Shown: positions 1,914 through 19,832 of the stretch, piece by piece | Position numbering within the stretch: the first letter of the stretch is position 1 | Layout of the letters: each line of letters opens with the position of its first letter | Assembly: GCA_040326155.1 (NCBI GenBank) | Contig: JBEQLE010000073.1 | Location: 1 to 19,832 of the forward strand | Length of the DNA stretch: 19,832 nucleotides | Direction of reading: 5' to 3' | Source of the DNA: Leptospirales bacterium | GTDB lineage: Bacteria > Spirochaetota > Leptospiria > Turneriellales > JAOUFE01 | Position numbers and translations under genes: made by a program | Notes under the pieces: model-generated | Database searches by the model: none | What the model saw: the letters and a program-made list of their open reading frames with translations, nothing else | Told to the model about the DNA's origin: nothing

Positions 1914-2023
1914 AGTATATATTCCCTTTCAGGATTTCTATACTATAATATCGGTATTTTCAATTCATTTCTATTTTTTTTCCCCATATTTTTTTTAAAT
2001 TTGAGGAAAACTACACTTTCTAA

Positions 2024-3709
2024 TTATAATTTTATTTCAATTAAACTGTTTATATAATTTTGGTGCAAATATTCATACAGGTGAAATTGTTTGATATTCT
2101 TTATATACATCCAATACGGCATTCGTGTAAAGCTCGATTTACCCTTTTTCACAGATTCTATAATCGCTGCTACGTCGATATAGAGAAAGGATTGAATTGA
2201 CTTATAATCGATGTTTTTACCTGTTTTTTTTATGACAGGACGAGAGACGGATTTTAATACCTTCTTTCTGCCAAACGTAATAATGAATTCATCTGAGTGT
2301 AGTGACACAATTGTTTTTTTTACATCCGGTTTCGACGGTTTATTCACATCAGATTCTATTTTTTCATTACCATCACCTTCCAGCGTTTCTATGAATTCCC
2401 ATTCATCTAAATTTTTACCGTTTCGAAATACTACCGAAACATTTTCTGTATGGTTGGCTTCCTTTTCAAGTTTATGCAAATATGTTTTTATAAGTTTTCT
2501 TTTATCGGTATCAAAATTAAATGATATACTGCCTTGCCACCCTTTGTCCGGTTTTCCAGTGGAGAGATCTGGAATTCGCGAAATAAATAGAGAAATATTT
2601 GAGTGAATCCACGTTGTAAAATCAGACGAGATATTATTTACCGCATAAGGTCCGATCATTTTGTGCAAAAATTTATTAATTTCGGGACGAACAGGAAGGT
2701 CGAGTTTTTCAAGGTCGTTGAATATGGCCATCCAATTGTATTGAAATTTAGCATAGATATAGGGAGCTTGTTTCGTTCTGTCAATTCTGCTTAAATAAGG
2801 TTCTCTTTGAATAATATTTTGAATAGGCGATGGTTTTTTGCCACCAGGTTCAACGGAACTGGTTGATAAATATCGTAAACCGTTTTTTGTTAAGTGGACT
2901 ACGGAGTAAGCATCATTAGAACCGGCTCGGTATTGTTTAATGACAGTTAGGAATTTTTCCATCGGGTTTTCAGCATTGACAGGGTCCGTCTTTTCAGCTT
3001 CCGAGCGTATAAATTTTCCATTTAAAAAGATAGAAATAACAGCGCCTGGCTCTCGCAGTTTTGCCATATAGTTTGCCGATAATTTTTTATACCCCGGGTT
3101 ATTTGAAATTGGTTTTTCCGATTTAACAAGCGATTTGTTTAATAGTTCCAAATTATTTGCGACGACGATAAAACCCTCTCCCTTACCAAGGTAAGTTTTT
3201 TCACCCGGATCGATTAACGCTATTTTCCCTTTTTCAATTTCATGAACATCAAGAGAGGTTTTTATCTCTTTTTCGGCGATATGTTCCTCCCATTTTTGAT
3301 CGGAGCGAATGAGTATGTTACGGTACAAGGTGTCCGTATTATTTGACGGAAAGAGTATACTGAAGTGTGGTTCTTTTTTTTTGCTCGTATTTGTGTCGGG
3401 TTCTCGCAGTCCCAACCCGATGGGTTTTTTTATATCGAAACCGTATTTTTTCATTTCTTCGAGATCAAGAAAGTTAACACCGGTACTCGATACTACCATT
3501 TGTTGCAAAAATTTCCATTGTGCTTCAGCCGTCTCTGTGCCCAGTAATTGAAAAAAGAACTCTTTTACATGGTAATTGATTTTTTCCAACGGGGCGATTT
3601 CAACATAAACATCGACATTAGCTGCTATATGCTCTTGTGGATTAAATGGTTTTGTCGTTTGACCATAAAGAACACCCGAGATTAGTAAATACAGAATAGG
3701 TTTTTTCAT
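2024..3709 (-). CDS. Exported hypothetical protein (561 aa), signal peptide; weak DUF3352-like N-terminus
   Basis: Long ORF co-oriented with its neighbours. MKKPILYLLISGVLYG/Q is a typical Sec signal. Confidence 0.75.
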   Translation of the reverse strand: MKKPILYLLISGVLYGQTTKPFNPQEHIAANVDVYVEIAPLEKINYHVKEFFFQLLGTETAEAQWKFLQQMVVSSTGVNFLDLEEMKKYGFDIKKPIGLGLREPDTNTSKKKEPHFSILFPSNNTDTLYRNILIRSDQKWEEHIAEKEIKTSLDVHEIEKGKIALIDPGEKTYLGKGEGFIVVANNLELLNKSLVKSEKPISNNPGYKKLSANYMAKLREPGAVISIFLNGKFIRSEAEKTDPVNAENPMEKFLTVIKQYRAGSNDAYSVVHLTKNGLRYLSTSSVEPGGKKPSPIQNIIQREPYLSRIDRTKQAPYIYAKFQYNWMAIFNDLEKLDLPVRPEINKFLHKMIGPYAVNNISSDFTTWIHSNISLFISRIPDLSTGKPDKGWQGSISFNFDTDKRKLIKTYLHKLEKEANHTENVSVVFRNGKNLDEWEFIETLEGDGNEKIESDVNKPSKPDVKKTIVSLHSDEFIITFGRKKVLKSVSRPVIKKTGKNIDYKSIQSFLYIDVAAIIESVKKGKSSFTRMPYWMYIKNIKQFHLYEYLHQNYINSLIEIKL

Positions 3710-3755
3710 AAGCTTAACTCAAAATAAAATATTAAATTGAAATGGCAATCTTTTT

Positions 3756-4397
3756 TTATGAATTGATTTCAATAAGACAGTGTTTTCCATAATGGTGAAA
3801 GTCAACAGGAATTTCACTTAACACAGGGTTTGCTTTTAAAAAATGTTCAATACGGGAACTTTTGAGCGGTGTTTGAACCATTAGAGTTTTTTGTAGAAAA
3901 GGCGTTTTTATGTCATTGAATATGTGCAATAGTTTTACAGCGCTCTCAAAATTATTTTCATTTTCTTGATAAGGAGGGTCGGCATATACCAGCAGAGTCT
4001 CCGGTATTTCATCTGCTTTGTCGAATACTTCTTCGGGATTTTTTAATACTTTGCCAAACAAACGTATAACATCTTTTTTAAAAAAATAAGCACCCGCTTC
4101 AGGGTCATTCTGGTCTACCCATTGGCGTATGTCCTTTAAACGTCTAGAGTTGATTTCAGCAAAACCTACCTGCGGACAGCCTCGGCTGATGGCTTCAAAA
4201 CCCATTTGACCACTGCCGGCATACAGGTCTAAGAACAGGGATTCGTCAAAATTGCATCTGTTTTCAAATATCTGGAAAGCCGCCTCTTTTACCTTTTGCG
4301 AAGTTATATTCTCGTGCCCGCGTATGGCAATGGGTTTGGCTATCGCTTTTTTGCGAAACTTCCCGCGAATTATATAAGATTGAAATTTTACGGACAT
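3756..4397 (-). CDS. rsmD: 16S rRNA (guanine966-N2)-methyltransferase RsmD family
   Basis: IIRGKFRKK...KVKEAAFQI, SAM motif FLDLYAGSGQMGFEAISRG and DPPY motif. Start moved to ATG 4397 (MSVKFQ), immediately after the upstream stop at 4400. Confidence 0.88.
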   Translation of the reverse strand: MSVKFQSYIIRGKFRKKAIAKPIAIRGHENITSQKVKEAAFQIFENRCNFDESLFLDLYAGSGQMGFEAISRGCPQVGFAEINSRRLKDIRQWVDQNDPEAGAYFFKKDVIRLFGKVLKNPEEVFDKADEIPETLLVYADPPYQENENNFESAVKLLHIFNDIKTPFLQKTLMVQTPLKSSRIEHFLKANPVLSEIPVDFHHYGKHCLIEINS

Positions 4398-4399
4398 TC

Positions 4400-5968
4400 T
4401 TAAGAGGAACGAGCAGAGCCCAGGCCATATTTTTTTATTTTTTGATAGAGGGTTTTGCGGGCAATTCCAAGCACTCGTGCACATTCAGAAATATTCTGGT
4501 GGTGTTTTTGCAACAGGCTTTGAATATACTCTCTTTCAAGTTCATCAAGCGAGTACTCTTTTTTTCCCATTAAAGAATTTATTGAGGAGTCCGTGGTGAA
4601 CAAACCATTTGTATAGGAGTCTTGTTTTTTAGTTTCTTCTCGTATGAAGGAAGAATTTGTAAATGTGATTGTCGCGTCGGTAGAAGGTGTTTGAATTTGG
4701 GAACTTTCGTTGTTTTCTGCAAGATCAAGCAGGGTAAGGTCTACTTTTTCATTACACAAAGCGAAAAGCTGGTTTAAAAAAGTATAAAAAGACTCTATTC
4801 CTTCCACCCATCGTCTTTTCATCAATACTTTTTTCACTTCGGTATCGACAGAGATTTTTTTTCCGTAGTGTAATTCGTATTTCTTTGCGTACATATCAAT
4901 CAGCTCAGGAATATCTGATTTTCTTTGTGTAATTTGCGGCACTTCAATTTTGTGAACGGCTAAATGCGAAATAAAGTCCTGGCGTAAAACCCCGCGATCT
5001 ATGGATTTTTCAAGGTCAAAGGGGGTATATACGATTATTCGGCACCGTACATTTATTTTTTGTTCTTGTTTATAAAAATGACCTTCTCGTATGGTACGAA
5101 GCAGTCGGGCTTGAAGATTCCAGTCCAGGTTTTCTATGTTTGGCAGGTATAAAACGCCTTTTTTGGTTCTTTCGAGCAACCCTTCGGCCAGCGGACTGAA
5201 ACCGGGCAGTGTAGTTTCATTTTTTCCAAAAAGCATAAACTCTTGCAAATGGACCGGAACCTCCGTAAAATCACCCACCAACAAGGGATGTTTTTTAACC
5301 GCCTTGCTTCGAGAGTAGATATATTTGACCACAGACATCGATTCAGATTTATCTTTCCCGGTCAACAGAATCGGGACCTGGTGAGGGGGTAATCCCTTTA
5401 AATCGCGGCGTAACCGGAGCGCTTCTTCAGATTCTCCGATTGTAAAGGAGAAAGTAGAACCGAGGCTTGTTTCTCCCATGTCCGGGCGTTCCGTTTTATC
5501 TTCTCGTGAGATCGTCAGCTCTGTTTCAGTCGCTTCTAACTGTTTTTTTATGAGTGTATAGTTCTGTTTATATTGCAGCATCTGGCTGAATTTTTTTAAA
5601 GATAGCGATATCGCACCGATTATTTCTTCAGAATTGTTTCCTGTCAGAAAATGTACCGATTCCACCTGAGGATGTTCCAACATAGACATCAACTGCTTGT
5701 CCTGAGTTGTGCTGGGGCCGGCTAAAAAGATAAGAGCCACCTTGCTATGATCTTGTGAATTCAGTGTTTTAACTTTATGGATGATATTTTCAATTTTTCC
5801 GTGGATATGCGTAAGGTCGATGACCAGTAATTCGTGGGAGAGTTTAAGCAGGTTGCGAAAACCTTCTTTAAGGGTGGAAGATGAGAATAAGTCCAGATCT
5901 CCTTTCAACTTTCGCTTTAATTTCCTGCGAAATTCCGCGTCATTGCTAATTAACTGAACCGTAACCAT
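4400..5968 (-). CDS. NtrC/Fis-family regulator: receiver-like N-terminus, degenerate sigma54-activator AAA+ domain, intact Fis HTH
   Basis: PILLTG, LQEFMLFG, LQARLLRTIREG, SLDELEREYIQSLL and HTH NISECARVLGIARKTLYQKIKKY. ATG at 5968 (TTG at 5971 is an alternative). Confidence 0.85.
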   Translation of the reverse strand: MVTVQLISNDAEFRRKLKRKLKGDLDLFSSSTLKEGFRNLLKLSHELLVIDLTHIHGKIENIIHKVKTLNSQDHSKVALIFLAGPSTTQDKQLMSMLEHPQVESVHFLTGNNSEEIIGAISLSLKKFSQMLQYKQNYTLIKKQLEATETELTISREDKTERPDMGETSLGSTFSFTIGESEEALRLRRDLKGLPPHQVPILLTGKDKSESMSVVKYIYSRSKAVKKHPLLVGDFTEVPVHLQEFMLFGKNETTLPGFSPLAEGLLERTKKGVLYLPNIENLDWNLQARLLRTIREGHFYKQEQKINVRCRIIVYTPFDLEKSIDRGVLRQDFISHLAVHKIEVPQITQRKSDIPELIDMYAKKYELHYGKKISVDTEVKKVLMKRRWVEGIESFYTFLNQLFALCNEKVDLTLLDLAENNESSQIQTPSTDATITFTNSSFIREETKKQDSYTNGLFTTDSSINSLMGKKEYSLDELEREYIQSLLQKHHQNISECARVLGIARKTLYQKIKKYGLGSARSS

Positions 5969-6298
5969 CAAGCTAAATACGAAAGCCTGCTAGCATATGT
6001 CAAGAGGTCTTTTTATCAGCTGGTATTTTATGTCAATTATTGTCTTGTCGTCTAAAGTATTTTCAGGGGAAGGCTTCAATGAGACGTAATCCTCTCAGCC
6101 GTCCCAAAAGAACCGAATTTTATTAAATGAATTGAGACTCTACGTTCCATTCTGCGGGCTGCAAAGATTTTCAACAAGAAATTATAAAAAAATAGTTCAC
6201 TTATGATCTACTGTTATTCCATTCATTTTTTTCTTTGTCGGGTAACTTTAGGGGTTCAAGCAAAATGATTCACCATGGTATTAGAAGGTATAATTTGT

Positions 6299-7234
6299 TT
6301 AGTGCGGTTTATGCTCTTTTTTCATACTATGCGATATACCCATTGCGTTCATTTTCAGATCAAATTCAAGTATCCTCTTTTCATTCTCTTTTAACTGAAT
6401 TTGTCTTTTTTCTATTTGTTTATAGATAAAACATGAAAACCGTTGGCGGACATGCTCGAAATAGTCATCTGGAGAAAGTGAACGGCCTTCAGCAATTATT
6501 TTTTCAATTTCATTGAGTGCTAAATTCAGCTGGTCGGCTCCGTCTTGTATGTTACCCCATGGGCCATAATGGGTCAGCATGGCTTTCTTTGCGCCGGTAT
6601 TTTGAATTTTTTGAATTGAAGTTCTCATTTTTTCGGGGTAAAACTCGGTTGGAGTTGTTGCGGGTATTATAAAAGGGTTTTCCGGTACTTGTAAAAAAGG
6701 ATAAGCTACGCCAAAAGCGTCACCGGTAAAAACCGTTTTTGTTTCAGGCTCATAAATCGATAGATGGTGGCTTGCATGACCCTCCGTATAAATAATATCA
6801 AAAGTCAGGTCTTTAATCGCAAAAGGCTCTTCTTGTAAACGGTGTATACGATGTTTCTCCAGAGGTTCAATGTCGCCATACAGGGCCTGGTAGTCGCGTT
6901 CCCCGTATACCGATTTTACAGCAGCAACAAGTCTGGATGGATGGCTCAGGTGATGAGCGCATCTGGGGTGACACAATAAAGTTGCATTCTTACAATATTT
7001 TAATAATTCGGCTGCGCCTCCTGCATGGTCAAGATGCACATGGGTAATGATAATGATGTCTACTGATTCCGGGGCAATATTTTCTTCTGCAAGCGAGTCG
7101 AGAATGTAGGGAACCGAATTGCGAGTTCCGGTTTCAATAATGGCAACGGACTTTTCTGTTTTCACGATCCATGCGGCGCACAAACGAGGTTCAATATAAT
7201 GGCAATCGATCTGTTTAATTTTTACATGCGGCAT
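6299..7234 (-). CDS. MBL-fold metallo-hydrolase
   Basis: THVHLDHAGG (HxHxDH), GHASHH, FTGD and LTHYG metal-ligand motifs. Confidence 0.92.
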   Translation of the reverse strand: MPHVKIKQIDCHYIEPRLCAAWIVKTEKSVAIIETGTRNSVPYILDSLAEENIAPESVDIIIITHVHLDHAGGAAELLKYCKNATLLCHPRCAHHLSHPSRLVAAVKSVYGERDYQALYGDIEPLEKHRIHRLQEEPFAIKDLTFDIIYTEGHASHHLSIYEPETKTVFTGDAFGVAYPFLQVPENPFIIPATTPTEFYPEKMRTSIQKIQNTGAKKAMLTHYGPWGNIQDGADQLNLALNEIEKIIAEGRSLSPDDYFEHVRQRFSCFIYKQIEKRQIQLKENEKRILEFDLKMNAMGISHSMKKEHKPH

Positions 7235-7482
7235 GCAGACCTTCAGGGTTTATATTGAATTATTTAATATAACAGCAAGCATATATTAAAAGCGAATCAT
7301 CTTTTTAGAAGACCTTGTCTTGTATCGGTCTAAAAGATGAAAAATAGCATTAAATGGATTGACAATCAAAGTGTGTATTATACTGTTCGAATCGGTAATA
7401 ATTTAACGAAGCTAATGTTAACCGGCCCTTATAAAATAGTATAAAAACAAAAAAAGAAAACAAAAGGTATGAAACCAAGACT

Positions 7483-8466
7483 ATGATTTCACCACGCAAG
7501 CAGATTATTGAACTTATTGAGAAAGGAACCATTCAGGTCGAGAATATTAACGAGGCGTTGAAACTCACTAAAGTTGCGCCCGATGCCATAGCCTGGAAAA
7601 AGTTTATGGACCACCTTTTACTTTGGCTGGGAGGCATGGCCTTGTCTTTTTCTGCGATGTTTTTTGTCGCGTACAACTGGAGCGATCTGGGGCGTTTTGC
7701 CAAATTCGGTATGGCCGAAGCTTTACTTGCACTGGCTATTTTTGCGTACTGGAAATTCGGTGAAAACAAGGTCGTAGGCAAAGTGAGTCTGCTTAGCGCT
7801 ACAATACTTCTCGGGGTTTTACTTGCTCTTGTCGGACAAACTTACCAGACCGGCGCCGACCCTTGGCAACTGTTTTTTTACTGGGCTTTATTCATGTTAC
7901 CCTGGGCTGTTCTTGGACGTTTTGCGGCAATCTGGCTTGTCTGGTTAGCCCTTCTTGTCGTTTCTATTTTATTATATCAGGATGATTTAAGAGGTAGGTT
8001 CTGGGGTTCGGTAAATCCTGAAACGGTAGCCAATATGTTGATTTTCTTCTTAATTACTACTACCCTTGCTATCTGGGAGTACTTATCTCCCAGGTTGGTC
8101 TGGTTATCGGAACGCTGGGCCATACGTTTGTTGGCGGCAACCAGCGGTTTTACCATAACATGGTTGGCAATGGAATCTATTTTTGACGGTAAAGGAGCTT
8201 TTGCAATTATTACCATACTCATCTGGATTGTCTGGTTGTTTGCCCTTATAGTTTTTTATTTGAAAATAAAACCCGATCTGTTTATGCTGACTGGCGGCTG
8301 CCTATCCGCTATAGTCGTATTGACCAGTTTCTTTGGCAATCTTATGTTGAGTGACTGGAGCGCGGGTGGTTGGTTGTTTCTTGCTTTGTTGGTCATTGGT
8401 ATGGGTGCGGGCGCCGCTTTTTGGCTGAAAAATGTACATAGGAAGTGGGCACATGAGTCAAACTAA
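7483..8466 (+). CDS. DUF2157 family membrane protein
   Basis: FFVAYNW and ALVGQTYQTGADPWQLFFYW signatures, multiple TM helices. Confidence 0.88.
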   Translation: MISPRKQIIELIEKGTIQVENINEALKLTKVAPDAIAWKKFMDHLLLWLGGMALSFSAMFFVAYNWSDLGRFAKFGMAEALLALAIFAYWKFGENKVVGKVSLLSATILLGVLLALVGQTYQTGADPWQLFFYWALFMLPWAVLGRFAAIWLVWLALLVVSILLYQDDLRGRFWGSVNPETVANMLIFFLITTTLAIWEYLSPRLVWLSERWAIRLLAATSGFTITWLAMESIFDGKGAFAIITILIWIVWLFALIVFYLKIKPDLFMLTGGCLSAIVVLTSFFGNLMLSDWSAGGWLFLALLVIGMGAGAAFWLKNVHRKWAHESN

Positions 8467-9517
8467 CGAACTGTTCTGGAAGAACTTAGAAGCGGCCGGT
8501 CTTGTGGAAGGGACCATTCCTGAAGCCGAAGCACCAGATTCACCGTGGTTTGTAAAAGTATTATTGGGTTTTTCCGCCTGGCTTGGCGCACTTTTTTTAT
8601 TTGGTTTTATGGCATTAGGTTTTTGGGATATTATAGATAACAGCGTTGCCGCATTTATTCTCGGGGCGGTGATGATCGGTATCGCTTTTACTGTGTTGTT
8701 TAATTCTAAGAATGTATTCTTAGAGCATTTTTCTCTGGCAATAAGTTTAGCCGGTCAATGTTTAATTGCAGTGTCGTTTATGGATATGGGAGAAACAAAC
8801 ATCTGGCTGTTGCTGGCCTTGTTTCAAGTTCCCCTTGCTATCTTTATGCCGAATTTTATTCACAAGGTATTGTCATCTTATTTTGCCGCTTTTTCGGTCT
8901 CCATGGCTCTAAATTCAAGCGGTGAGCCGTATATTATCAGTGGTATTCTTATGGCGGTTGTCGCTTATTTCTGGCTTAACGAATTTCGCTACCCAAAACA
9001 GATGAGTAAAATGAGGGCGATGGGCTATGGCTTCACGCTGGCTCTGGTACACGTTAAGAGTTTTGAACCTTATAGTGCAGGAGGTGTGACTGGTCTGTTT
9101 TCTAATAAGCAGTTTGAGTTGTGGTTTGCGCCCTGGATGGGTGAAATTATTGCCGGCGGGGTTTTGCTCTATGTTGTATGGCAATTATTGCGCCGTAATA
9201 ACCTGTCTATATCTGAACCTATAACCGTTATGGTGCTACTTGGCACTTTATTTTTTTGCTCTGTGTCCATTGTGGTGTTTGGTATTTCTGCGGCCACTTT
9301 AATTATATTGCTGGGTTTTGCCAGCAGCAATCGTGTATTATTGGGGCTTGGTATTATTTCTTTACTCTATTTTATATCAATTTATTATTATACGCTTACT
9401 TCAACCTTGATGGAGAAATCACTTTATTTGCTTGTCTTGGGCCTTTTATTAATTTTTATGCGTTGGTTAATGTTGCGTGTGGTCGGCGCTTCGAAGGAGT
9501 CAGAAAATGTCCAGTAA
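8453..9517 (+). CDS. DUF4401 family membrane protein
   Basis: SPWFVKVLLGFSAWL, LAGQ, YYYTLTSTLMEKS. Sits between DUF2157 and GDYXXLXY genes, the usual arrangement. Start taken at ATG 8453. Confidence 0.85.
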   Translation: MSQTNELFWKNLEAAGLVEGTIPEAEAPDSPWFVKVLLGFSAWLGALFLFGFMALGFWDIIDNSVAAFILGAVMIGIAFTVLFNSKNVFLEHFSLAISLAGQCLIAVSFMDMGETNIWLLLALFQVPLAIFMPNFIHKVLSSYFAAFSVSMALNSSGEPYIISGILMAVVAYFWLNEFRYPKQMSKMRAMGYGFTLALVHVKSFEPYSAGGVTGLFSNKQFELWFAPWMGEIIAGGVLLYVVWQLLRRNNLSISEPITVMVLLGTLFFCSVSIVVFGISAATLIILLGFASSNRVLLGLGIISLLYFISIYYYTLTSTLMEKSLYLLVLGLLLIFMRWLMLRVVGASKESENVQ

Positions 9518-10034
9518 AATAGCAGCGGGTGTTTTGGTTCTGGTTTTAGCTCTGTTAAACTGGACTATTTACAAGAAGGAAAAACACCTCGCCGAAGGTA
9601 GGGTTGTTTATCTGAATCTGGCCCCTGTGGACCCACGTTCTTTAATGCAAGGTGACTATATGGCCTTAAATTTCCGTATGGGCCAGGAAGTACGAAGCGC
9701 TTTGCGAAAAAAAGAGGGAGAGCAGTCTACGCAAATGGCTATATTTCCTTCGGGCGGTTATGTTATAGCAAATCTCGATCAACGTGATATTGCAACTTTT
9801 AAAGGTATTTATGCCGACCAGAAATTGACAAAGAATGAAATTAAACTGCGTTATCGAATGCGTCATGGTTCGGTAAAGTTTGCAACAAATGCTTTTTTCT
9901 TTCAAGAGGGTCATGGAGAATATTATGAACGAGCTCGTTATGGTCAATTTCGCGTTGACGATAGCGGCGAACTGTTACTGGTGGCAATGTATGATGAAGA
10001 ACTGAAAAAACTGGGTCCGAAAGATGGCGAATAA
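9507..10034 (+). CDS. GDYXXLXY domain membrane-anchored protein
   Basis: LAPVDPRSLMQGDYMALNF and FFFQEG motifs. AAGGAG RBS before ATG 9507. Confidence 0.9.
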   Translation: MSSKIAAGVLVLVLALLNWTIYKKEKHLAEGRVVYLNLAPVDPRSLMQGDYMALNFRMGQEVRSALRKKEGEQSTQMAIFPSGGYVIANLDQRDIATFKGIYADQKLTKNEIKLRYRMRHGSVKFATNAFFFQEGHGEYYERARYGQFRVDDSGELLLVAMYDEELKKLGPKDGE

Positions 10035-10153
10035 ACCCCATCCGACGCTCGTTCACGGTTTTATTATAATCGTGCATTCGAGTTCTTTTTTTTACTTTAT
10101 AAACTATCGTCTTCTTAGACCCTGTCCTTTGTAAAAAAAATGGGACCTGAATT

Positions 10154-11305
10154 ATGAAATTTATATTACCAAAATCCACTTTAGAAAAAGCAATGGCTCA
10201 GATTGACGCTATCGTTCCCGGACGAGACACGCAGACTCTGCTATCGAATGTTTTATTAGGTATTGAAAAAGACAGGGTTCGTATTACCGCTTCAGATATG
10301 GAAAGTACTGTAAGAATCAGTATTGACGCTGAAGATACGGAACCGGGCGAATTGATCGTTCGCGCTAAAAAACTTTCCGAGATAGCTCGCCAGATTAATT
10401 CGGAAAAAGTTGTTTTTTCCAGTGAAATCGACGAAGAAGCGGAGGGGTCTGATGAGGGGGCAGTGCACCGAGTGCGCCTCGAAGGCAGTGGCAAAATGGC
10501 TGCCAAGTTCAGAATGGCCGGTTCTGATCGGTCTCACTTTCCTGAGATGACCGAAATCAGTTCAGATAAGCTATCAAAAGTTCCGGCTGACATACTTTCC
10601 GAGATGATCGCTAAAACGGTCTATTCTATCTCTCAAGAAGATAATCGCTATATATATAATGGACTCTATTTTCTAGCTGACGGTAATAAACTTACTATTG
10701 TTGGCACCGATGGACGGCGCCTGGCCGCTGTTTCTCGAACCGTTCCCGAACCCATCAGTATTGGCTCTGCCGAAGCGGGTGATATTGTTGTTCATGCCAA
10801 AGCAATACGTGAACTTGTTAAAATTATGGAAAGTGGTGAAGATGTTTCGATCGGTGTCGAACAAAGAGATGTTTTTTTTCAAGTCGACCAGGCCGAACTG
10901 TCCAGCCGTTTATTAGAAGGCAAATTTCCCGATTACAAAAAAGTTATACCGGGAACATCGGAAATTGATTTTGAAATTAACCGGGCCGATTTAAGCGACG
11001 CTATTCGCCAGGTTATGGTGATGACGGAGCAGCCATCTTACCAGGTTCGATTGTCGTTAAGTGCAGGCGGGGTTGAGCTTAGCGCAAATACTCCTGATGT
11101 AGGAGAGGCTGAAATAATGCTTCCGGTCGAAGGTCTTGACCAGGAACTTGTAATCGGTTTCAACGCTAATTATTTAATGGATATTCTAAAGAACCTCGAT
11201 TGTGAAATGGTGCGTTTGAAGTTTATTGACCCGGCTAAACCAATTGTTGTTGAAGATACGGGGGATGACCAATTCGTATCGCTGGTTATGCCCATGAAAA
11301 TTTAG
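10154..11305 (+). CDS. dnaN: DNA polymerase III subunit beta (sliding clamp)
   Basis: LLSNVLL, ASDME, GTDGRRLA, SRLLEGKFPDYKKVIP, IGFNANYLMDIL and C-terminal LVMPMKI. Confidence 0.97.
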   Translation: MKFILPKSTLEKAMAQIDAIVPGRDTQTLLSNVLLGIEKDRVRITASDMESTVRISIDAEDTEPGELIVRAKKLSEIARQINSEKVVFSSEIDEEAEGSDEGAVHRVRLEGSGKMAAKFRMAGSDRSHFPEMTEISSDKLSKVPADILSEMIAKTVYSISQEDNRYIYNGLYFLADGNKLTIVGTDGRRLAAVSRTVPEPISIGSAEAGDIVVHAKAIRELVKIMESGEDVSIGVEQRDVFFQVDQAELSSRLLEGKFPDYKKVIPGTSEIDFEINRADLSDAIRQVMVMTEQPSYQVRLSLSAGGVELSANTPDVGEAEIMLPVEGLDQELVIGFNANYLMDILKNLDCEMVRLKFIDPAKPIVVEDTGDDQFVSLVMPMKI

Positions 11306-11306
11306 T

Positions 11307-12470
11307 ATGCCGGACAGTTATTTTCCCGTTAGTTTACGAAAAATCACTCTAAGAAGCTTCCGAAAATACGAAAAACTTACAATTGACTTAAATGCTCCTG
11401 TGGTTATGATCACCGGAAGAAACGGTAGCGGTAAGACTACTATTTTAGAAGCTATTTCTATGGTCAGCTCTTTGCGATCTTTTCGCAGGGCTTCAGATAA
11501 AGAACTCATCGCCTGGGAAAAAAATTATTACTCTCTTGAGCTGGAATATAAAGGGACCGAAGGTGTTGAGGTCTTAAAAATGGGGTATGGTAAAGCGGAG
11601 AAAAACAGTCCGACAATGCGAACCATGGTTGTAAATGGGAGCAGGGTAAAAAAAATATCCGAATTTCTCGGTCGTTTTCAAACTGTTGTATTTTCCCCCG
11701 AAGATTTAAAAATTATCGAAGGTCCGCCCGCAGAGAGGCGTAAATATATCGATATGGTTCTTTCGCTTCTTTCTCCCGGTTACTTAGATACCCTGCAAAA
11801 ATACCGTAAAGCTTTAGAAATGCGCGGTGCCATTTTAAAAAAAAGGGGAAGCCAGTCCTATGTTTCTTCCATTGACCGAGAACTTGCCGAGTATGGGAGT
11901 CGTATACAATTGGCCAGGGTCGATTTTATTCAAGAGTTTCGAAAACCTTTTTTTGAATATATTGATAAAATTTCCGGCGGTGAGGACCAATGGAATTTAG
12001 CATACGTACCATCCATTGCAGGTGGCGATCAAAAAGAGGTCTATTTTAATACATTACAGCAATCGTATACCAGAGATATTCGGTATAAGCAAACTATGAA
12101 TGGAATTCACCGAGACAGGTTTATCATTCACCTGCCCGACGCTGCCGAAAAAGAAATTCGAATTGTTGCCTCTCAGGGCCAAAAACGGACCGCTGCTCTA
12201 GCCATGCGAATGGCCCAATATCGACATACCCAGGAAAAAACTCACGAAACACCCGTTATTTTAATCGATGATGTTTTAACCGAACTCGATACCCACAGAA
12301 GAAACGGTTTTATTCGATTCATGAACGATGTTGGTCAGGCTCTAATTACGTTGACCGATACCAGCGGAATTCAAGACTATATAACCGCCGGAGATGGTAT
12401 TCAAAACATGCTGGTCTACGAAACCGGCGAAAGTTCCGGTCAAATTCAGTTGCAAGCGATTAAGCCGTAA
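11307..12470 (+). CDS. recF: DNA replication/repair protein RecF
   Basis: Walker A GRNGSGKTT, VVFSPEDL..I.GPPAERRKYID, SQGQKR, Walker B ILIDDVLTELD. Directly follows dnaN. Confidence 0.96.
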   Translation: MPDSYFPVSLRKITLRSFRKYEKLTIDLNAPVVMITGRNGSGKTTILEAISMVSSLRSFRRASDKELIAWEKNYYSLELEYKGTEGVEVLKMGYGKAEKNSPTMRTMVVNGSRVKKISEFLGRFQTVVFSPEDLKIIEGPPAERRKYIDMVLSLLSPGYLDTLQKYRKALEMRGAILKKRGSQSYVSSIDRELAEYGSRIQLARVDFIQEFRKPFFEYIDKISGGEDQWNLAYVPSIAGGDQKEVYFNTLQQSYTRDIRYKQTMNGIHRDRFIIHLPDAAEKEIRIVASQGQKRTAALAMRMAQYRHTQEKTHETPVILIDDVLTELDTHRRNGFIRFMNDVGQALITLTDTSGIQDYITAGDGIQNMLVYETGESSGQIQLQAIKP

Positions 12471-13013: not shown

Positions 13014-13535
13014 ATGAAAAAGATCAATATTATTTACATATTTGTTGCCATATTCATAATTAACCTGCCCCTTTTTTCTCAGGAACCACATACTGGTAGT
13101 CAAGAGACAGAGAAATCGGTTCTAATTTACCTGCACTCTCCAGTTGCAGGTTATAACTCCCTCAATGGTTTGATTTTTGATTTTCTACCGCTAGGCATAG
13201 AGATACCTATGAACCACTTTATCGGTTTAAGAGCTGAAACAGGATTAATATATTACAACGCTACGTTACAATATTTTAATATCAATCTTTTTTTACAGTT
13301 TTACCTGTTTCCGGAAAGTGGTACTCCGTATGGAGGCTTTTATGTTGCTCCGGGGATCAGTTCGGCGGTCAATTTTTCCAATCAAAACTAGGATTTTAGC
13401 GCCATCATCATCGCTGGTTACTCTTGGAATCTTACCAACAACTGGCACTTCAATACCGGGCTCGGTTATGGATATTCATTCACGAGTCAGACCTCCAATG
13501 CATTTGTAGACATCAATTTTGGCTACTGGTTTTAA
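13014..13535 (+). pseudogene. Small outer-membrane beta-barrel protein gene interrupted by one in-frame TAG at 13389-13391
   Basis: Signal peptide present. The same frame continues after TAG as DFSAIIIAGYSWNLTNNWHFNTGLGYGYSFTSQTSNAFVDINFGYWF*, ending in a beta-signal-like GYWF. Confidence 0.8.
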
Positions 13536-13901: not shown

Positions 13902-15779
13902 ATGTCATCAAAAGTTGGGAAAGTAAATAAAGTTTCAGACTCTACAAAAAATAATGCTACTAACACAAAAATATCTTCCGGAACTACTACTACTAATCAT
14001 CATCATGTAAACAATAATAGTAATTCGGTTTCCAATCAACCGCTTGTTTCTGGAAGCAGCAGGACACAATTATTACTGCAATTACAGAGAACGCATGGTA
14101 ATCAATTTGTAGGGCAAGTGATAAAATCGGGAATTTTACAAAAAAAATGTTCGAGTTGTCAAAACGATTTTATTGGCTTAAGATTAGAAGGGATGCATCT
14201 TCGCACTCTGTCTCTTTGTCGAACATGTGAAGGAAAGAACCTGATCAAGAGTTTACAAAAAAATGAAATACGAAAGACAGGTGTACCTGAAGAGGAACCG
14301 CAAGCAAAACTCACTCAGCGATCTGATATTAAAGAAGAAGAGCCACAGGCAAAGTCTATCCAAAGGGTAGAACCAGAAGAGGGTGAACCTCAAACTAAAA
14401 TGAGTATGGGCGCCCCCGGTGATGTTTACGAAAAAGAGGCCGACTCTGTCGCAGAACAGGTTTCCGCATTTTATAACTCGGATAATCTTGCCCAGAGGGT
14501 GATCTCCCGCCTCAATGTTCCCAAAGTTCTTGGGCTAGGCAACAAAACTACCACTATTTCCCGGATTTCGACCTCGCCAAGAAGAGCATCAATATTTGCA
14601 CATTATGAGTCAGGTGGAGGAGGTACGGTCGCCCCTTCCGTCGAAAACCGGATTATGCAGAGCAAAGGAAGTGGTTCTCCTTTGCCATCTTCCATTCGCA
14701 ATGTGATGGCCTTGCGTACCGGACATGACTTCAGTAGCGTGCGCGTGAAAACCGGCTCCGAAGCCGAAACTCTGAACACGAAACTGGGGGCCAGGGCTTT
14801 TACCCATGGTTCCGACATCTGGATGGGGAAGGGTGAAAGCACAAATGACGTTAAGCTGATGTCCCATGAGTTGACCCACGTTGTGCAGCAAGGCGCAGCC
14901 AAAAGGGTCAGCCCACAAAGCATCATCGGCCTGAGCGGTATGAAAACGTCCGACAAGGTACTCGGGGCTTTGCAAGCCATGGCGAATGGCCAGGGCAAAG
15001 CAGGGGCTCTTTACGCAAAAGAGATCATGCAATTTCAAGAAGAGAACTCGCCACAAAGCATTCAGACCCTTCAAAGTCAGATTATGCCGCAATCGAAGCA
15101 GGTATCAATTAACCAGAAGAGTGATTCAAGCACCTTAAGGGCTTGTTCGCGTAACGAGCCTGCGGCTATTACAAATTTTTCTACAGGTGATATACTGGGG
15201 GTTAAAAGCGGTAATTCTGAAGGGTGGATACGCGGGAAATTAAATTCAGCAAGTGGACCAACTACCGACTTTCCGGATTATCTAAAAGTTCGATATAAAG
15301 AGAATCGTGGCGGACGGGATTATTTCGATATTCTCGAAGGACAACATATTGGAAAAGTAGGGACATTATTACCCGGGTATTTGGAAACAAAAAGCTGGGG
15401 TGGTTCCGTTTCATTACAATTTAATGAAAATCGAACGACGTCGACATCACTTCAAAGTAGAGGTGTTCTAAATTATGGTGCGGGTACTGTAGAAGCAAAA
15501 ATATTTGTAGCCGGTGGCACCAATAAAATTTCACCAAACAGAAACTATAACCTTGCTTTACCAGATTATCCACATTCTGGAGGAAGTAGTTATGGAGATT
15601 ATGCCAAAACGTGGTTTCGTATTATCGGAGGCCCGCAGGGTGATGAATACTTACATCGGGGGGATCGTTCTGCTGGATGTGTAAGTGTTGCGTCTAATTG
15701 GCCCCAAATCTATAGATATCTTATAAATAAACGCAATGGAACACAAAATATTGGAACGATAAGAAGGATGATTACTTGA
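13902..15779 (+). CDS. DUF4157 (eCIS core domain) protein with C-terminal Tlde1/L,D-transpeptidase-like domain; putative polymorphic toxin
   Basis: LQLQRTHGNQFV, GAPGDVYEKEADSVAEQV, GSPLP...GHDFSSVRV...ARAFTHGSDI...HELTHVVQQ (DUF4157, about 14667-14892). C-terminal YLHRGDRSAGCVSV (HxGxxSxGC) at about 15648-15689. Confidence 0.88.
   Translation: MSSKVGKVNKVSDSTKNNATNTKISSGTTTTNHHHVNNNSNSVSNQPLVSGSSRTQLLLQLQRTHGNQFVGQVIKSGILQKKCSSCQNDFIGLRLEGMHLRTLSLCRTCEGKNLIKSLQKNEIRKTGVPEEEPQAKLTQRSDIKEEEPQAKSIQRVEPEEGEPQTKMSMGAPGDVYEKEADSVAEQVSAFYNSDNLAQRVISRLNVPKVLGLGNKTTTISRISTSPRRASIFAHYESGGGGTVAPSVENRIMQSKGSGSPLPSSIRNVMALRTGHDFSSVRVKTGSEAETLNTKLGARAFTHGSDIWMGKGESTNDVKLMSHELTHVVQQGAAKRVSPQSIIGLSGMKTSDKVLGALQAMANGQGKAGALYAKEIMQFQEENSPQSIQTLQSQIMPQSKQVSINQKSDSSTLRACSRNEPAAITNFSTGDILGVKSGNSEGWIRGKLNSASGPTTDFPDYLKVRYKENRGGRDYFDILEGQHIGKVGTLLPGYLETKSWGGSVSLQFNENRTTSTSLQSRGVLNYGAGTVEAKIFVAGGTNKISPNRNYNLALPDYPHSGGSSYGDYAKTWFRIIGGPQGDEYLHRGDRSAGCVSVASNWPQIYRYLINKRNGTQNIGTIRRMIT
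14290..14400 (+). repeat. Three intragenic EEEPQAK-type repeats
   Basis: EEEPQAKLTQR / EEEPQAKSIQR / EEGEPQTK in the linker before DUF4157. Confidence 0.75.
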
Positions 15780-17561: not shown

Positions 17562-17640
17562 TTAGCATAGTATGTATTAGTAAAGATATTTTAAAAATTA
17601 CATAATAGTGAGAAGAAAATTCTGAAAAACCATCGAGCAT

Positions 17641-17890
17641 ATCGTATAACGTGTTGAGATTATCTGACGTGGGAATCCGGTCGTAGCCAGCCAGACGAAC
17701 AAAAAATAAACCTCCCGTTTATTGCGAGCTCTGGCGGTTAAGCGTAGACCGGATTTCCATGTGGTCGAACAATTACTTTAATTAATTATGAGAGAAATAC
17801 TTGGGATCATATATCTATGCTCCGAAAAATATCATTGTTCGACCCGAACGCCCGAAAAGGGCGTGAGCAGATCAATCTCTGTTATCGGAT
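17641..17890. repeat. 250-nt attC-like multi-hairpin (cloverleaf) element
   Basis: Outer arms atcgtataac/gttatcggat (8/10) and gagattatctg/cagatcaatctc enclose three hairpins at 17669-17760, 17763-17844 and 17848-17864. Confidence 0.75.
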
Positions 17891-17893
17891 GTA

Positions 17894-19832
17894 GTGTGCC
17901 ACGAACGTGCGACGAGAGAAGTTTCTGAAAGACGTTAGTCTTTCCCGCACGGTGCTGTTTAGAAGATGAGGGTGGGCCCCTCGAAACCGGCCTACAGGGG
18001 ATGGTTTCAAATCACCTTAAGCTGCTTTGGTAAAGAGCCATGGTAGTGAGCGTTAAGGAAAAGGCCAACTATATGATTGGTCAGATGAGTGCATGAGAGA
18101 CGAACGCAAGTGAACCACTGATGAAGTGTCGAAAGATAACATAAGGCGTTGTCAAAACCGGGGTGTGTACTTCCGTCCCGGGATAAGTTCGGGAGAAACC
18201 TGTTTACCAAGTGAGCCTTTGGCTCGCATGGTCTAAGGGCCTCAAGTGGCCCCGGGACTGCCCGAGCGGCAACCGGCATGTAGGTGGCGTGAAACATGCA
18301 CAGGCTTCTAAGCGGAACGTGGGAACCTGTCGTGCTGATGAGAAGGGAAAATACCAAGCAAGAAGGACTTGTAAGGTAGAAATACCGAAGCAGTGCATAG
18401 GGGCGGAACAACCCGTAGTAGTGATGAAATTCCTGTAATGGGAATGGAGCGAAGGGGTTGTATGATTCGTTTGATTATGAAAACAACCGGTTTACCGGGA
18501 GGATTTTTATGAGTAGAACAAAGTCGTTTGAGATCGAAAAACAGGCTGTATGGGAAGCTTTTAAATTGGTAAAAGCCAACCGTGGTGCAGCTGGTGTAGA
18601 CGGACAATCTATCCGGCAATTTGAAGAGAAGTTGTCTGACAACTTATACAAACTTTGGAATAGGATGTCATCCGGGAGTTATTTTCCACCTCCGGTAAAG
18701 GCGGTAGAAATACCGAAGAAATCGGGTGGAAAACGGACCCTTGGCATTCCAACAGTCGCAGACAGAACGGCACAAATGGTAGTGAAGATGAAAATCGAAC
18801 CGCTGATTGAGCCGGTATTTCATCATGATTCTTATGGTTATCGTCCTGGCAAATCTGCTAAAGACGCACTGGCTATAACGAGGAAAAGGTGCTGGGAATA
18901 CGACTGGGTATTGGAGTTTGATATAAAAGGACTTTTTGACAACATCGACCATACTCTTTTAATGAAGGCAATTCAAAAACATGTGAAAGAAGAGTGGATT
19001 ATCCTTTACCTGAAAAGGTGGTTAGTTGCTCCTCTATCGAATGTGGACGGGGACCTAGTCGAGAGAAAGCAGGGGACACCGCAGGGCGGAGTCATCAGCC
19101 CTCTTCTGGCGAACCTTTTTCTTCATTATGTTTTTGACCTGTGGATGCAGAGGAATCACCCGCATAATCCATTTGCGCGATATGCGGATGATGGGATTGT
19201 GCATTGCAAAACAGAAAAAGAGGCGTGCGAGATGCGCGATAAAATTGCTTCGAGATTAGTCGAATGTAAGCTTGAAATACACCCCGTGAAAACGAGAATT
19301 GTGTATTGCAGGGATTACAAAAGAACAGGAAAACATTCCTCTAACTCCTTTGACTTTCTAGGGTTTGCGTTTAGACCACGGCGAGCAAAAGGAAAGAAAG
19401 GGAATATTTTCATGGGCTTTTTACCGGCTATCAGTAATGGAGCAAAGAAGTCAATAAAGCAGACAATCCGTAGTTGGAATATTCCAACGCAAACCGCCGG
19501 GACGATTGAAGAACTATCTAAATATTATAACCCGGCCCTCCGGGGCTGGATTAATTACTATGGTTCTTTTTATCCGTCGGAGCTGGCGACTATATACCGG
19601 CACTTCGATCACAAATTAATAATCTGGGCCATGCGAAAATATAAAAGGATGCGGGGGAAATACAAAAAGACCCAAAACTGGTTGATTCGCATTTCGCAGG
19701 CTAATCCGGACCTTTTTCATCATTGGCGGATTGGCCACAAACCCAGCGGTTGGATCATAAGAGCCGTATGAAGTGAGAGTTTCAAGTACGGTTCTGTGAG
19801 AGCCTGCGGGGGAAGTTCCCGCGGGCTACTCG
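17894..19832 (+). mobile_element. Group II intron, bacterial class D (IIB, RmInt1-like); 3' end cut about 2 nt short by the window edge
   Basis: 5' GTGTG at 17894. DI closing stem ccacg 17899-17903 / cgtgg 18318-18322. alpha gcctaca 17990-17996 / alpha' tgtaggt 18279-18285. DV gagccgtatgaagtgagagtttcaagtacggttc 19761-19794. DVI 19798-19832 with bulged A. EBS/IBS pairing supports the 5' boundary. Confidence 0.93.
18509..19771 (+). CDS. ltrA: Group II intron reverse transcriptase/maturase (420 aa, no endonuclease domain)
   Basis: KANRGAAGVDG, RTLGIPTVADR, GTPQGGVISPLLANLFLH, RYADD (YADD at 19181-19192), FDFLGF, X domain LRGWINYYG. GGAGG RBS before ATG 18509. Confidence 0.96.
   Translation: MSRTKSFEIEKQAVWEAFKLVKANRGAAGVDGQSIRQFEEKLSDNLYKLWNRMSSGSYFPPPVKAVEIPKKSGGKRTLGIPTVADRTAQMVVKMKIEPLIEPVFHHDSYGYRPGKSAKDALAITRKRCWEYDWVLEFDIKGLFDNIDHTLLMKAIQKHVKEEWIILYLKRWLVAPLSNVDGDLVERKQGTPQGGVISPLLANLFLHYVFDLWMQRNHPHNPFARYADDGIVHCKTEKEACEMRDKIASRLVECKLEIHPVKTRIVYCRDYKRTGKHSSNSFDFLGFAFRPRRAKGKKGNIFMGFLPAISNGAKKSIKQTIRSWNIPTQTAGTIEELSKYYNPALRGWINYYGSFYPSELATIYRHFDHKLIIWAMRKYKRMRGKYKKTQNWLIRISQANPDLFHHWRIGHKPSGWIIRAV

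Follow-up and report, generated by a model that had tools for sequence, protein, structure and literature searches.

The stretch of DNA analysed here (the window) is the entire contig C142, 19,832 nt, of the genome assembly of a Leptospirales bacterium (G000; completeness 94.7%). At its right end lies a group II intron of the class D/IIB3 type. The intron directly follows one copy of a multicopy structured repeat, here termed the cloverleaf, and it probably uses such repeats as landing sites, as judged from the pairing between its exon-binding sites (EBS) and the intron-binding sites (IBS) in the 5′ exon. C-numbers denote contigs of the G000 assembly, and L-numbers denote extracted loci, including relatives and metagenome loci. 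The main features, all on the + strand, are the following:

17637 to 17893, + strand: one copy of the three-arm cloverleaf repeat, 257 nt (nhmmer, covariation)
17881 to 17886, + strand: IBS2 (-13 to -8), GTTATC, 6/6 Watson-Crick complement of 18135-18140
17887 to 17893, + strand: IBS1 (-7 to -1), GGATGTA, pairing 6/7 with 18168-18174
17894 to 19832, + strand: group II intron, class D/IIB3 type (Rfam, RmInt1 alignment)
18135 to 18140, + strand: EBS2, GAUAAC, in the column of RmInt1 AUGAA and L025/L026 CUCUUC
18168 to 18174, + strand: EBS1, UACUUCC, in the loop of hairpin 18158-18182 and in the column of the RmInt1, L053 and L028 EBS1
18206 to 18256, + strand: 51-nt insertion in domain I (gap in the alignment with RmInt1 and relatives)
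18281, + strand: EBS3, U, aligned with RmInt1 G329; predicts A as the first 3′-exon base
18509 to 19771, + strand: reverse transcriptase/maturase open reading frame (ORF; Pfam, TIGR04416, identity to the RmInt1 and L053 proteins)
19761 to 19832, + strand: domains V (19761-19794) and VI, the latter with a bulged branch A (RF00029 alignment, C122 and C97 3′ ends); the final 2 nt are missing

The hallmarks of a group II intron were present, namely a 5′ GTGTG at 17894, domain V, the bulged A of domain VI and a reverse transcriptase/maturase ORF. The Rfam model RF01999 (domain I-IV sequence) matched at 17968-18085 with 110.9 bits (cut-off 36), and RF00029 (domains V/VI) matched at 19759-19832 with 56.3 bits (cut-off 40), the latter match being broken by the contig end. 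Domains I-IV were colinear with RmInt1 in a nucleotide alignment, and the 51-nt insertion in domain I had no counterpart in RmInt1 or in any aligned relative, and two metagenome contigs with related introns skip the 51 nt as well. The contig stops 2 nt short of the intron 3′ end. Since the related introns on C122 and C97 end in ...CTACTCGAC, followed by unrelated sequence, the window intron lacks only its last 2 nt, and its inferred full length is 1941 nt. By sequence, the intron is apparently intact.

The intron's 5′ end was placed at 17894 (GTGTG, 17894-17898). The homology to RmInt1, to L053 and to 14 further relatives from other phyla (protein identity 50-74%) sets in with a GTGYG aligned to 17894, which ACGAACG follows in several of them. 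The homology of an intron fragment on C111 begins at 17894 as well; one metagenome contig starts exactly there, and in another the 72 nt upstream of 17893 are unrelated. A splice site at 17907, which the original prediction had considered, would make 17894-17906 exonic and would use a GTGCG (17907-17911) that agrees with the GUGYG consensus, but these alignment starts, together with an EBS1/EBS2 pairing that is in register with 17894 only, rule it out for all practical purposes.

The intron-encoded protein is 420 amino acids long when read from its ATG (437 amino acids for the open frame from 18458) and carries a YADD motif. It scored 423.9 bits against TIGR04416 (cut-off 300). A Pfam search with the 437-amino acid frame returned only RVT_1 (residues 85-304) and GIIM (331-404), and no endonuclease domain was found in it; class D proteins are described as lacking this domain (PMC3552965). 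When plasmids were searched with tblastn, multicopy loci of S. meliloti GR4 were hit with 57% identity. RmInt1, which is reported as a IIB3/class D intron without an endonuclease domain (PMC5894124), was located in the GR4 record through its published target, with four copies at TTCATCGATGAGA↓GTGTG (here and below, the arrow marks the insertion point). The window protein shares 62% identity with the RmInt1 protein over the 312 amino acids available, and 58% over 407 amino acids with a second class D-type protein of GR4 (L053), including the C-terminal tail ...DLF.HW..G. L053 is probably RmInt2. The window intron is thus classed as an RmInt1-like class D/IIB3 intron, as had been proposed, on the strength of these protein identities and of the colinearity with RmInt1. 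EcI5, which had been named beside RmInt1 for the alignment, is not known to be a class D intron.

Exon-binding sites and the guide-derived target

The EBS positions were set by alignment with RmInt1. For this intron, PMC3123198 gives UUCAU as IBS2, C as linker, GAUGAG. as IBS1 and G329 as EBS3. The RmInt1 EBS2 (AUGAA) and EBS1 (UUUCGUC) fall in the columns of the window EBS2 and EBS1, and UUUCGUC pairs 7/7 with GAUGAGA, two G·U pairs included. The exons of the relatives co-vary with these columns. At the EBS1 loop position, 7 of the 16 other scored introns pair 7/7 with their own, differing 5′ exon (L018, L022, L023, L027, L028, RmInt1 and L053). In the EBS2 column, the CUCUUC of L025 and L026 pairs 6/6 with the exon sequence GAAGAG, and wherever the 3′ exon could be read (six of six relatives), the EBS3 column is complementary to +1. 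In one metagenome relative, EBS1 reads AACUUCU, in which the central ACUUC, pairing with the GAAGU of the repeat family, is retained.

In the window intron, EBS1 lies in a loop closed by CCGGGG (18158-18163) and CCCGGG (18177-18182). EBS2 pairs 6/6 with IBS2 and EBS1 pairs 6/7 with IBS1, as the original prediction had stated with coordinates that all proved correct. The sole EBS1-IBS1 mismatch is a U·U at -4; the commonest base of the repeat family at this position is A, which would pair. When the whole hairpin and EBS2 region was scanned with wobble pairs allowed, shuffled-exon controls gave p values of ∼0.44 for EBS1 and ∼0.10 for EBS2, which are not significant. At fixed positions, we calculate that 6/6 together with 6/7 or more Watson-Crick pairs would arise by chance with a probability of ∼3e-7. 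Because the positions were fixed independently by homology to relatives, we regard the pairing as significant.

Read as guides, EBS2, EBS1 and EBS3 specify GTTATC, GGAAGTA and a following A, that is, GTTATCGGAAGTA↓A, and the window site differs from this target only at -4, where it has a T. Recognition by sequence pairing with GTTATCGGAAGTA as ideal target, as proposed from the sequence, is supported by these alignments; the A at +1 was added from EBS3, and A is indeed the first 3′-exon base of both the C97 and the C122 copy.

The cloverleaf repeat and its end as an intron target

The element upstream of the intron contains two detected inverted repeats (I2 and I3) and folds as follows:

17646 to 17650 (ATAAC) with 17881 to 17885 (GTTAT): R-like box of the basal stem
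17657 to 17666 (AGATTATCTG) with 17868 to 17878 (CAGATCAATCT): L-like box of the basal stem, with one bulged C
17667 to 17762: arm A
17763 to 17844: arm B, carrying a 60-nt insert
17850 to 17862: arm C, GCCC-GAAAA-GGGC

That the repeat is multicopy, as had been claimed, is confirmed by 57 nhmmer hits (E<1e-5) on 39 contigs of the assembly, many of them at contig ends. An alignment of 14 copies defines the basal stem boxes ATAAC/GTTAT and ATTTTATCTG/CAGAT-C-AAAAT (with the bulged C), which close the three arms. RNAalifold alone found arms A and B and missed the long-range basal stem; the full structure was set by hand and then tested. In the 14-copy alignment 83.8% of the cells pair, against 28-42% with the partners slid, and both-sided changes occur in 39 of 70 pairs, a value reached by none of 500 shuffles. 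Optional insert modules account for repeat lengths of 170-300 nt. No Rfam match was obtained for the repeat, either at the gathering threshold or at E up to 10, and BLAST, run with one copy on 400 genomes of the phylum, likewise gave nothing, which is weak evidence given that two candidates per genome were scored. The GTTATC described earlier as the right-hand core of a hairpin is the 3′ strand of the basal stem, where it pairs with GTATAAC (17644-17650).

The intron sits 13 nt past the GTT, inside an 18-nt motif, GTTATCGGCAGTA↓AACGC, and its 13-nt target is the 3′ strand of the cloverleaf basal stem. The claim of an insertion at the end of the repeat was not upheld, and in one subfamily, that of the type A ends (C7, C29, C118, C138, C106 and C112), GTTATCGGCAGTA↓AACGC is followed by ∼55 further conserved nt with a hairpin. 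Type B copies of the 18-mer have no cloverleaf (C7, C138, C112, C12, C91, C82, C130 and C83) and precede a different conserved hairpin and TTGACA.

We then compared the target with the repeat family at large. A 21-nt pattern retrieved 66 metagenomic repeat ends, of which ∼59 were judged by eye to be family-like from their upstream hairpin. The guide-derived 14-mer has the commonest base at 13 of 14 positions in these 66 ends (-7 differs, and -8 is tied); for 40 candidate ends of the G000 genome the count is 12 of 14. The agreement covers -4 (A) and +1 (A), neither of which is dictated by the window's own exon, so that at -4 the guides fit the family consensus better than they fit the present site. 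An exact 14/14 target was found at the repeat end of the metagenome locus L125. Furthermore, C97 carries a 3′ intron remnant, 88% identical to the window intron and with a 21-nt insertion, followed by AACGCTTCGAACCTCAAACATTGATG, which is homologous to the type A module after the unoccupied ends on C138, C118, C29 and C106. A truncated cloverleaf, whose arm A differs strongly from that of the window copy, lies ∼430 nt upstream of this remnant, and a fragment of an IS110-type insertion sequence (IS; Transposase_20, E = 1.8e-13) lies between the two. The type A 3′ exon and the differing arm A make C97 a second insertion, beside a different repeat copy; the intron lineage has thus hit this type of site at least twice.

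Several observations weigh against a lineage adapted to this repeat. The assembly contains only one full-length intron copy, and none of the 66 metagenomic ends is occupied. Good targets are confined to a subfamily of the ends: a score of at least 12/14 is reached by 10 of 66 in the metagenomes and by 3 of 40 in the G000 genome, one of the three being the occupied window site, for which the +1 letter in the scoring is the first base of the intron. Among 8.5 million genomic 14-mers, 8 match the target at 13/14; three of them represent the motif at cassette ends (type A on C138, type B on C91 and C83), and five lie outside recognised repeat or cassette ends. The 5′ fragments on C111 and C149 (77-81% identity) have 5′ exons unrelated to the repeat, and the 3′ exon of the C122 remnant matched no repeat module. 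The 3′ exon of the window intron is absent from the assembly, with no other contig overlapping the last 15-127 nt of C142. Among 100 other genomes searched, the intron was absent save for a 72%-identical relative of its non-coding 5′ part in one genome of the same class. Finally, most of the agreement with the consensus follows from the intron sitting in a family member; what is independent is the two positions and the C97 site. In four public sediment metagenomes (contigs), only fragmentary relatives (88-99% identity) were found, none of which bridges 17893/17894 with the repeat, and a first metagenome scan with a 22-mer from the intron 5′ end had given no hits. The original prediction had spoken of many harmless sites, which these counts show to be overstated. 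As for where other copies lie, C97 bears out the association with the repeat and the C111 and C149 exons do not.

Many of these observations would be accounted for by a one-off insertion, by retrohoming or ectopic retrotransposition, of an intron whose real home is elsewhere (e.g. an IS or a cassette gene), the repeat being incidental. The single full-length copy, the unoccupied metagenomic ends and the non-repeat 5′ exons of the C111 and C149 fragments all fit this view, as does the general point that any intron matches its own site and that family members are alike by descent. It is harder to reconcile with the C97 remnant, at a homologous site beside a different repeat copy, with a fit of EBS1 and EBS3 to the family majority at -4 and +1 that exceeds, or does not depend on, their fit to the window site, and with the exact 14/14 target at L125; we consider it unlikely, though it is the strongest of the alternatives. 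Recognition aided by structure, as in class C introns, with the upstream hairpin or cloverleaf needed for homing besides the 13-nt pairing, is more improbable still. Both repeat-associated insertions (C142 and C97) are on the cloverleaf side of the 18-mer and none is at a type B copy, and an attC directly followed by a IIB intron is on record (PMC7923331). Yet folding would conceal the target 13-mer instead of exposing it, as this 13-mer forms the 3′ strand of the basal stem, class D relatives reach unstructured IS sequences through EBS pairing alone, and two sites are too few to establish a preference.

Taken together, the preferred reading, which we hold to be rather probable, is that of a class D intron guide-matched to the end consensus of the repeat family, and of a lineage adapted to a multicopy, non-coding landing site. 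On this reading the repeat would have been chosen rather than merely hit, and the intron would be currently mobile. The DNA target would be found by base pairing of EBS2 with -13 to -8, of EBS1 with -7 to -1 and of EBS3 with +1. The lineage would have become adapted to a non-coding multicopy site near the consensus of the 3′ basal-stem strand of the repeat, at cassette boundaries, and the window copy would exemplify this, its repeat end carrying a single mismatch in IBS1. RmInt1 is reported to show a bias for the lagging-strand template, with priming by the nascent lagging strand (PMC5894124). By analogy, the ribonucleoprotein would reverse-splice into single-stranded DNA at the replication fork, and reverse transcription may be primed by nascent lagging-strand DNA.

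The orientation of the window intron is compatible with this scheme. The genes dnaN (10154-11305) and recF (11307-12470) lie on the + strand, the GC skew of the window changes sign near 2-4 kb, turning positive left of dnaN, and the genes switch strand near 7.3 kb. Positions 1-12470 are probably a replication-origin region; no dnaA was seen beside dnaN in the window. On the basis of the GC skew and of the gene orientation around dnaN, the + strand is likely the lagging-strand template, which would place the intron sense strand on that template.

Further class D-type intron fragments, with 67-94% identity, are present on C70, C73 and C76 (∼550 nt each), at C85:57844-58092 (with the ORF lost), at C111:2365-2498 and 4625-4741, and at C149:46501-46634. 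To judge from the short contigs, one or more additional multicopy introns were collapsed by the assembler.

Cassette ends and likeness to attC

On C7, C138 and C112 a type B copy of the 18-mer and an inverted type A copy flank segments of 1.4-2.2 kb. Their ORFs (350, 361 and 476 amino acids) are mutually unrelated, which rules out that the segments are copies of one IS; judged by their sequence, they look like gene cassettes with conserved ends. In these three resolved cassettes the gene runs from the B end towards the cloverleaf, and the intron target lies between the 3′ end of the gene and the cloverleaf, on the antisense strand, so that the intron orientation is antisense to the gene. Since the 18-mer is also found inverted and without a cloverleaf, the target is better called a cassette-end inverted repeat. 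The motif occurs as inverted copies at cassette ends in the form GTTATCGGCA.TAAACGC.

A third conserved module, ...GGAAAGAGCGCCTCTT.. ..TTTCTC.. CCGCCCC .. ACC..ATGGAGGTT, follows some cloverleaf ends (C29:∼4420-4445, C16:∼5140-5200 and C67:80-150; metagenome loci L071, L091, L096, L097, L100 and L110) and may be the shared leader of the next cassette. Two large eCIS_core proteins are encoded near cloverleaves, one in the window just upstream of the repeat (13902-15779) and one within a cassette between two cloverleaves (C16:5333-7717).

The inverse core of attC sites has the consensus RYYYAAC and the core GTTRRRY; such sites also have inner L″/L′ boxes, an unpaired spacer and an extrahelical base. 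The consensus of the repeat family, GCATAAC ... GTTATGC, agrees with each at 6 of 7 positions. The layout is also attC-like: besides the core boxes there are a variable centre, an asymmetric spacer and an inner box of 10 bp in which one C is bulged. On the other hand, the elements have three arms and lengths of 170-300 nt, and both pairing and conservation reach 5-11 nt past the core. Co-oriented repeats form arrays with 1-2.7 kb spacing on C106 (three repeats, 6923-10866), C16 (four to five, 1599-8841), C7 (1822-3759), C41, C161 and C140 (loci L058-L061, L067 and L068). The intervening ORFs run in both orientations, and 18 of the 30 have no Pfam family.

In the assembly, whose 94.7% completeness leaves absence unproven, no protein reached the TIGR02249 integron integrase cut-off of 265. 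The best scores were 181.8 bits for a 352-amino acid protein on C12 and 170.8 bits for a protein on C106, neither of which covers model positions ∼186-237. The recombinase next to the C106 array was rejected as an integrase; it is an ordinary XerD (356 bits, cut-off 329.6). The C12 protein (8247-9305, - strand) is an orphan tyrosine recombinase that falls below every NCBIfam cut-off (XerA 206, XerC 184 and IntI 182 bits) and lacks the IntI-specific segment. Its gene lies 390 nt from a type B 18-mer (C12:9459-9561, L045), which is followed by three ..ATTAGAA.. direct repeats, and the contig ends 100 nt beyond these. This locus could be the platform of a cassette system. The term attC-like, used in the original prediction, thus holds for the architecture of the repeat, and with no integron integrase at the family cut-off its membership of attC is unproven.

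At their 5′ ends the cassettes carry one half, the distal one, of a palindromic 18-bp arm (TTATCGGCAATAAACGC), and at their 3′ ends the matching half plus a ∼200-nt three-arm fold, as expected for a crossover at G↓TT (the arrow marking the crossover). Cloverleaf sites have independently been hit by a class D intron, by an IS110-type element and by a small inverted-repeat element, which mirrors the IIC-attC and IS1111-attC parasites. The arm halves, the orphan C12 recombinase near an 18-mer and the attraction of three kinds of mobile DNA led us to consider, tentatively and as a doubtful proposition, that the cloverleaf is the recombination site of an integron-like cassette system without a canonical IntI. 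If such a system is real, circular junctions would read ...CCGATAAC-cloverleaf-G↓TTATCGG...

IS110-family transposase genes or fragments (Transposase_20, DEDD_Tnp_IS110) adjoin cloverleaves at C97:5857-6279 (L062:1857-2279) and C161:692-1291. A ∼100-nt palindromic element with terminal repeats GAG(T/G)CTGTAGAATAAGT is inserted into cloverleaf ends immediately behind the GTT, at the following places:

C21, 352 to 452
C58, ∼1100 to 1191
C81, ∼13080 to 13179
C83, ∼4530 to 4631

Another copy of such an element lies on C114, after an unrelated ...TGTT, and at C91:431, C154:17356 and C159:14004 the same GAG(T/G)CTGTAGAATAAGT terminus is followed by other sequence that starts with a possible ORF.

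Relation to known intron systems

The window intron shares with RmInt1 the homologous positions of EBS1, EBS2 and EBS3, the 5′ GUGUG, the lack of an endonuclease domain and the conserved C-terminal tail, and both have a multicopy non-essential element as target and an orientation that is, here by inference, that of the lagging-strand template. It differs in that the RmInt1 target is described inside the ISRm2011-2 transposase gene (PMC5894124), whereas the one here is in a structured intergenic repeat, in that RmInt1 has a 1-nt linker between IBS2 and IBS1 (PMC3123198), whereas the two are contiguous here, and in the extra 51-nt insertion in domain I. RmInt2, also of class D, is reported to target both terminal inverted repeats of the multicopy ISRm17, so that one target copy always faces the lagging-strand template (PMC5894124). 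The target-bearing 18-mer is likewise inverted at both cassette ends; unlike in RmInt2, the repeats here bound unrelated genes and a cloverleaf rather than an IS, and no type B insertion was seen.

IIC-attC introns (e.g. S.ma.I2) and IS1111-attC elements are described as inserting in antisense to the gene of the cassette, close to the gene-proximal attC end (PMC3001079). The window intron resembles them in that it is probably specialised on a cassette-array repeat, with an antisense, gene-proximal target in C7, C138 and C112. It is not itself a IIC-attC intron: its protein and domain I are RmInt1-like, and in place of a hairpin with a short IBS1 it uses a full 13-nt EBS2 plus EBS1 match. Targeting of attC had been put down to class C in the original prediction, but a IIB intron beside attC had already been reported: UHB.I2 (IIB1, CL1 class), from a soda-lake metagenome, directly follows an attC and has its IBS1 and IBS2 in the flanking sequence (PMC7923331). 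UHB.I2 is a single case of the CL1 class, and the exons of its relatives are poorly conserved, whereas here a match to the family consensus is joined by a second insertion. Repetitive extragenic palindromic (REP) elements are known as IS110 targets (PMC1525189). We found no report in the literature of a class D intron at an attC or a comparable structured repeat, which is not proof of its absence from print.

Group II introns persist through harmless repeated sites: class D uses IS, class C uses terminators and attC hairpins, and in one reported instance a IIB intron lies beside attC. The strategy is therefore known, and a class D intron at a structured cassette-boundary repeat is a new variant of it. 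An RmInt1-type intron would here reach the niche of the IIC-attC introns by base pairing instead of by hairpin recognition, a testable convergence in target choice, and, having a defined target, it is also a naturally occurring class D intron that is easy to reprogram. More unusual than the intron is the repeat system, which may also matter more: it is uncharacterised and strongly co-varying, it bounds variable genes, and it attracts three kinds of mobile DNA.

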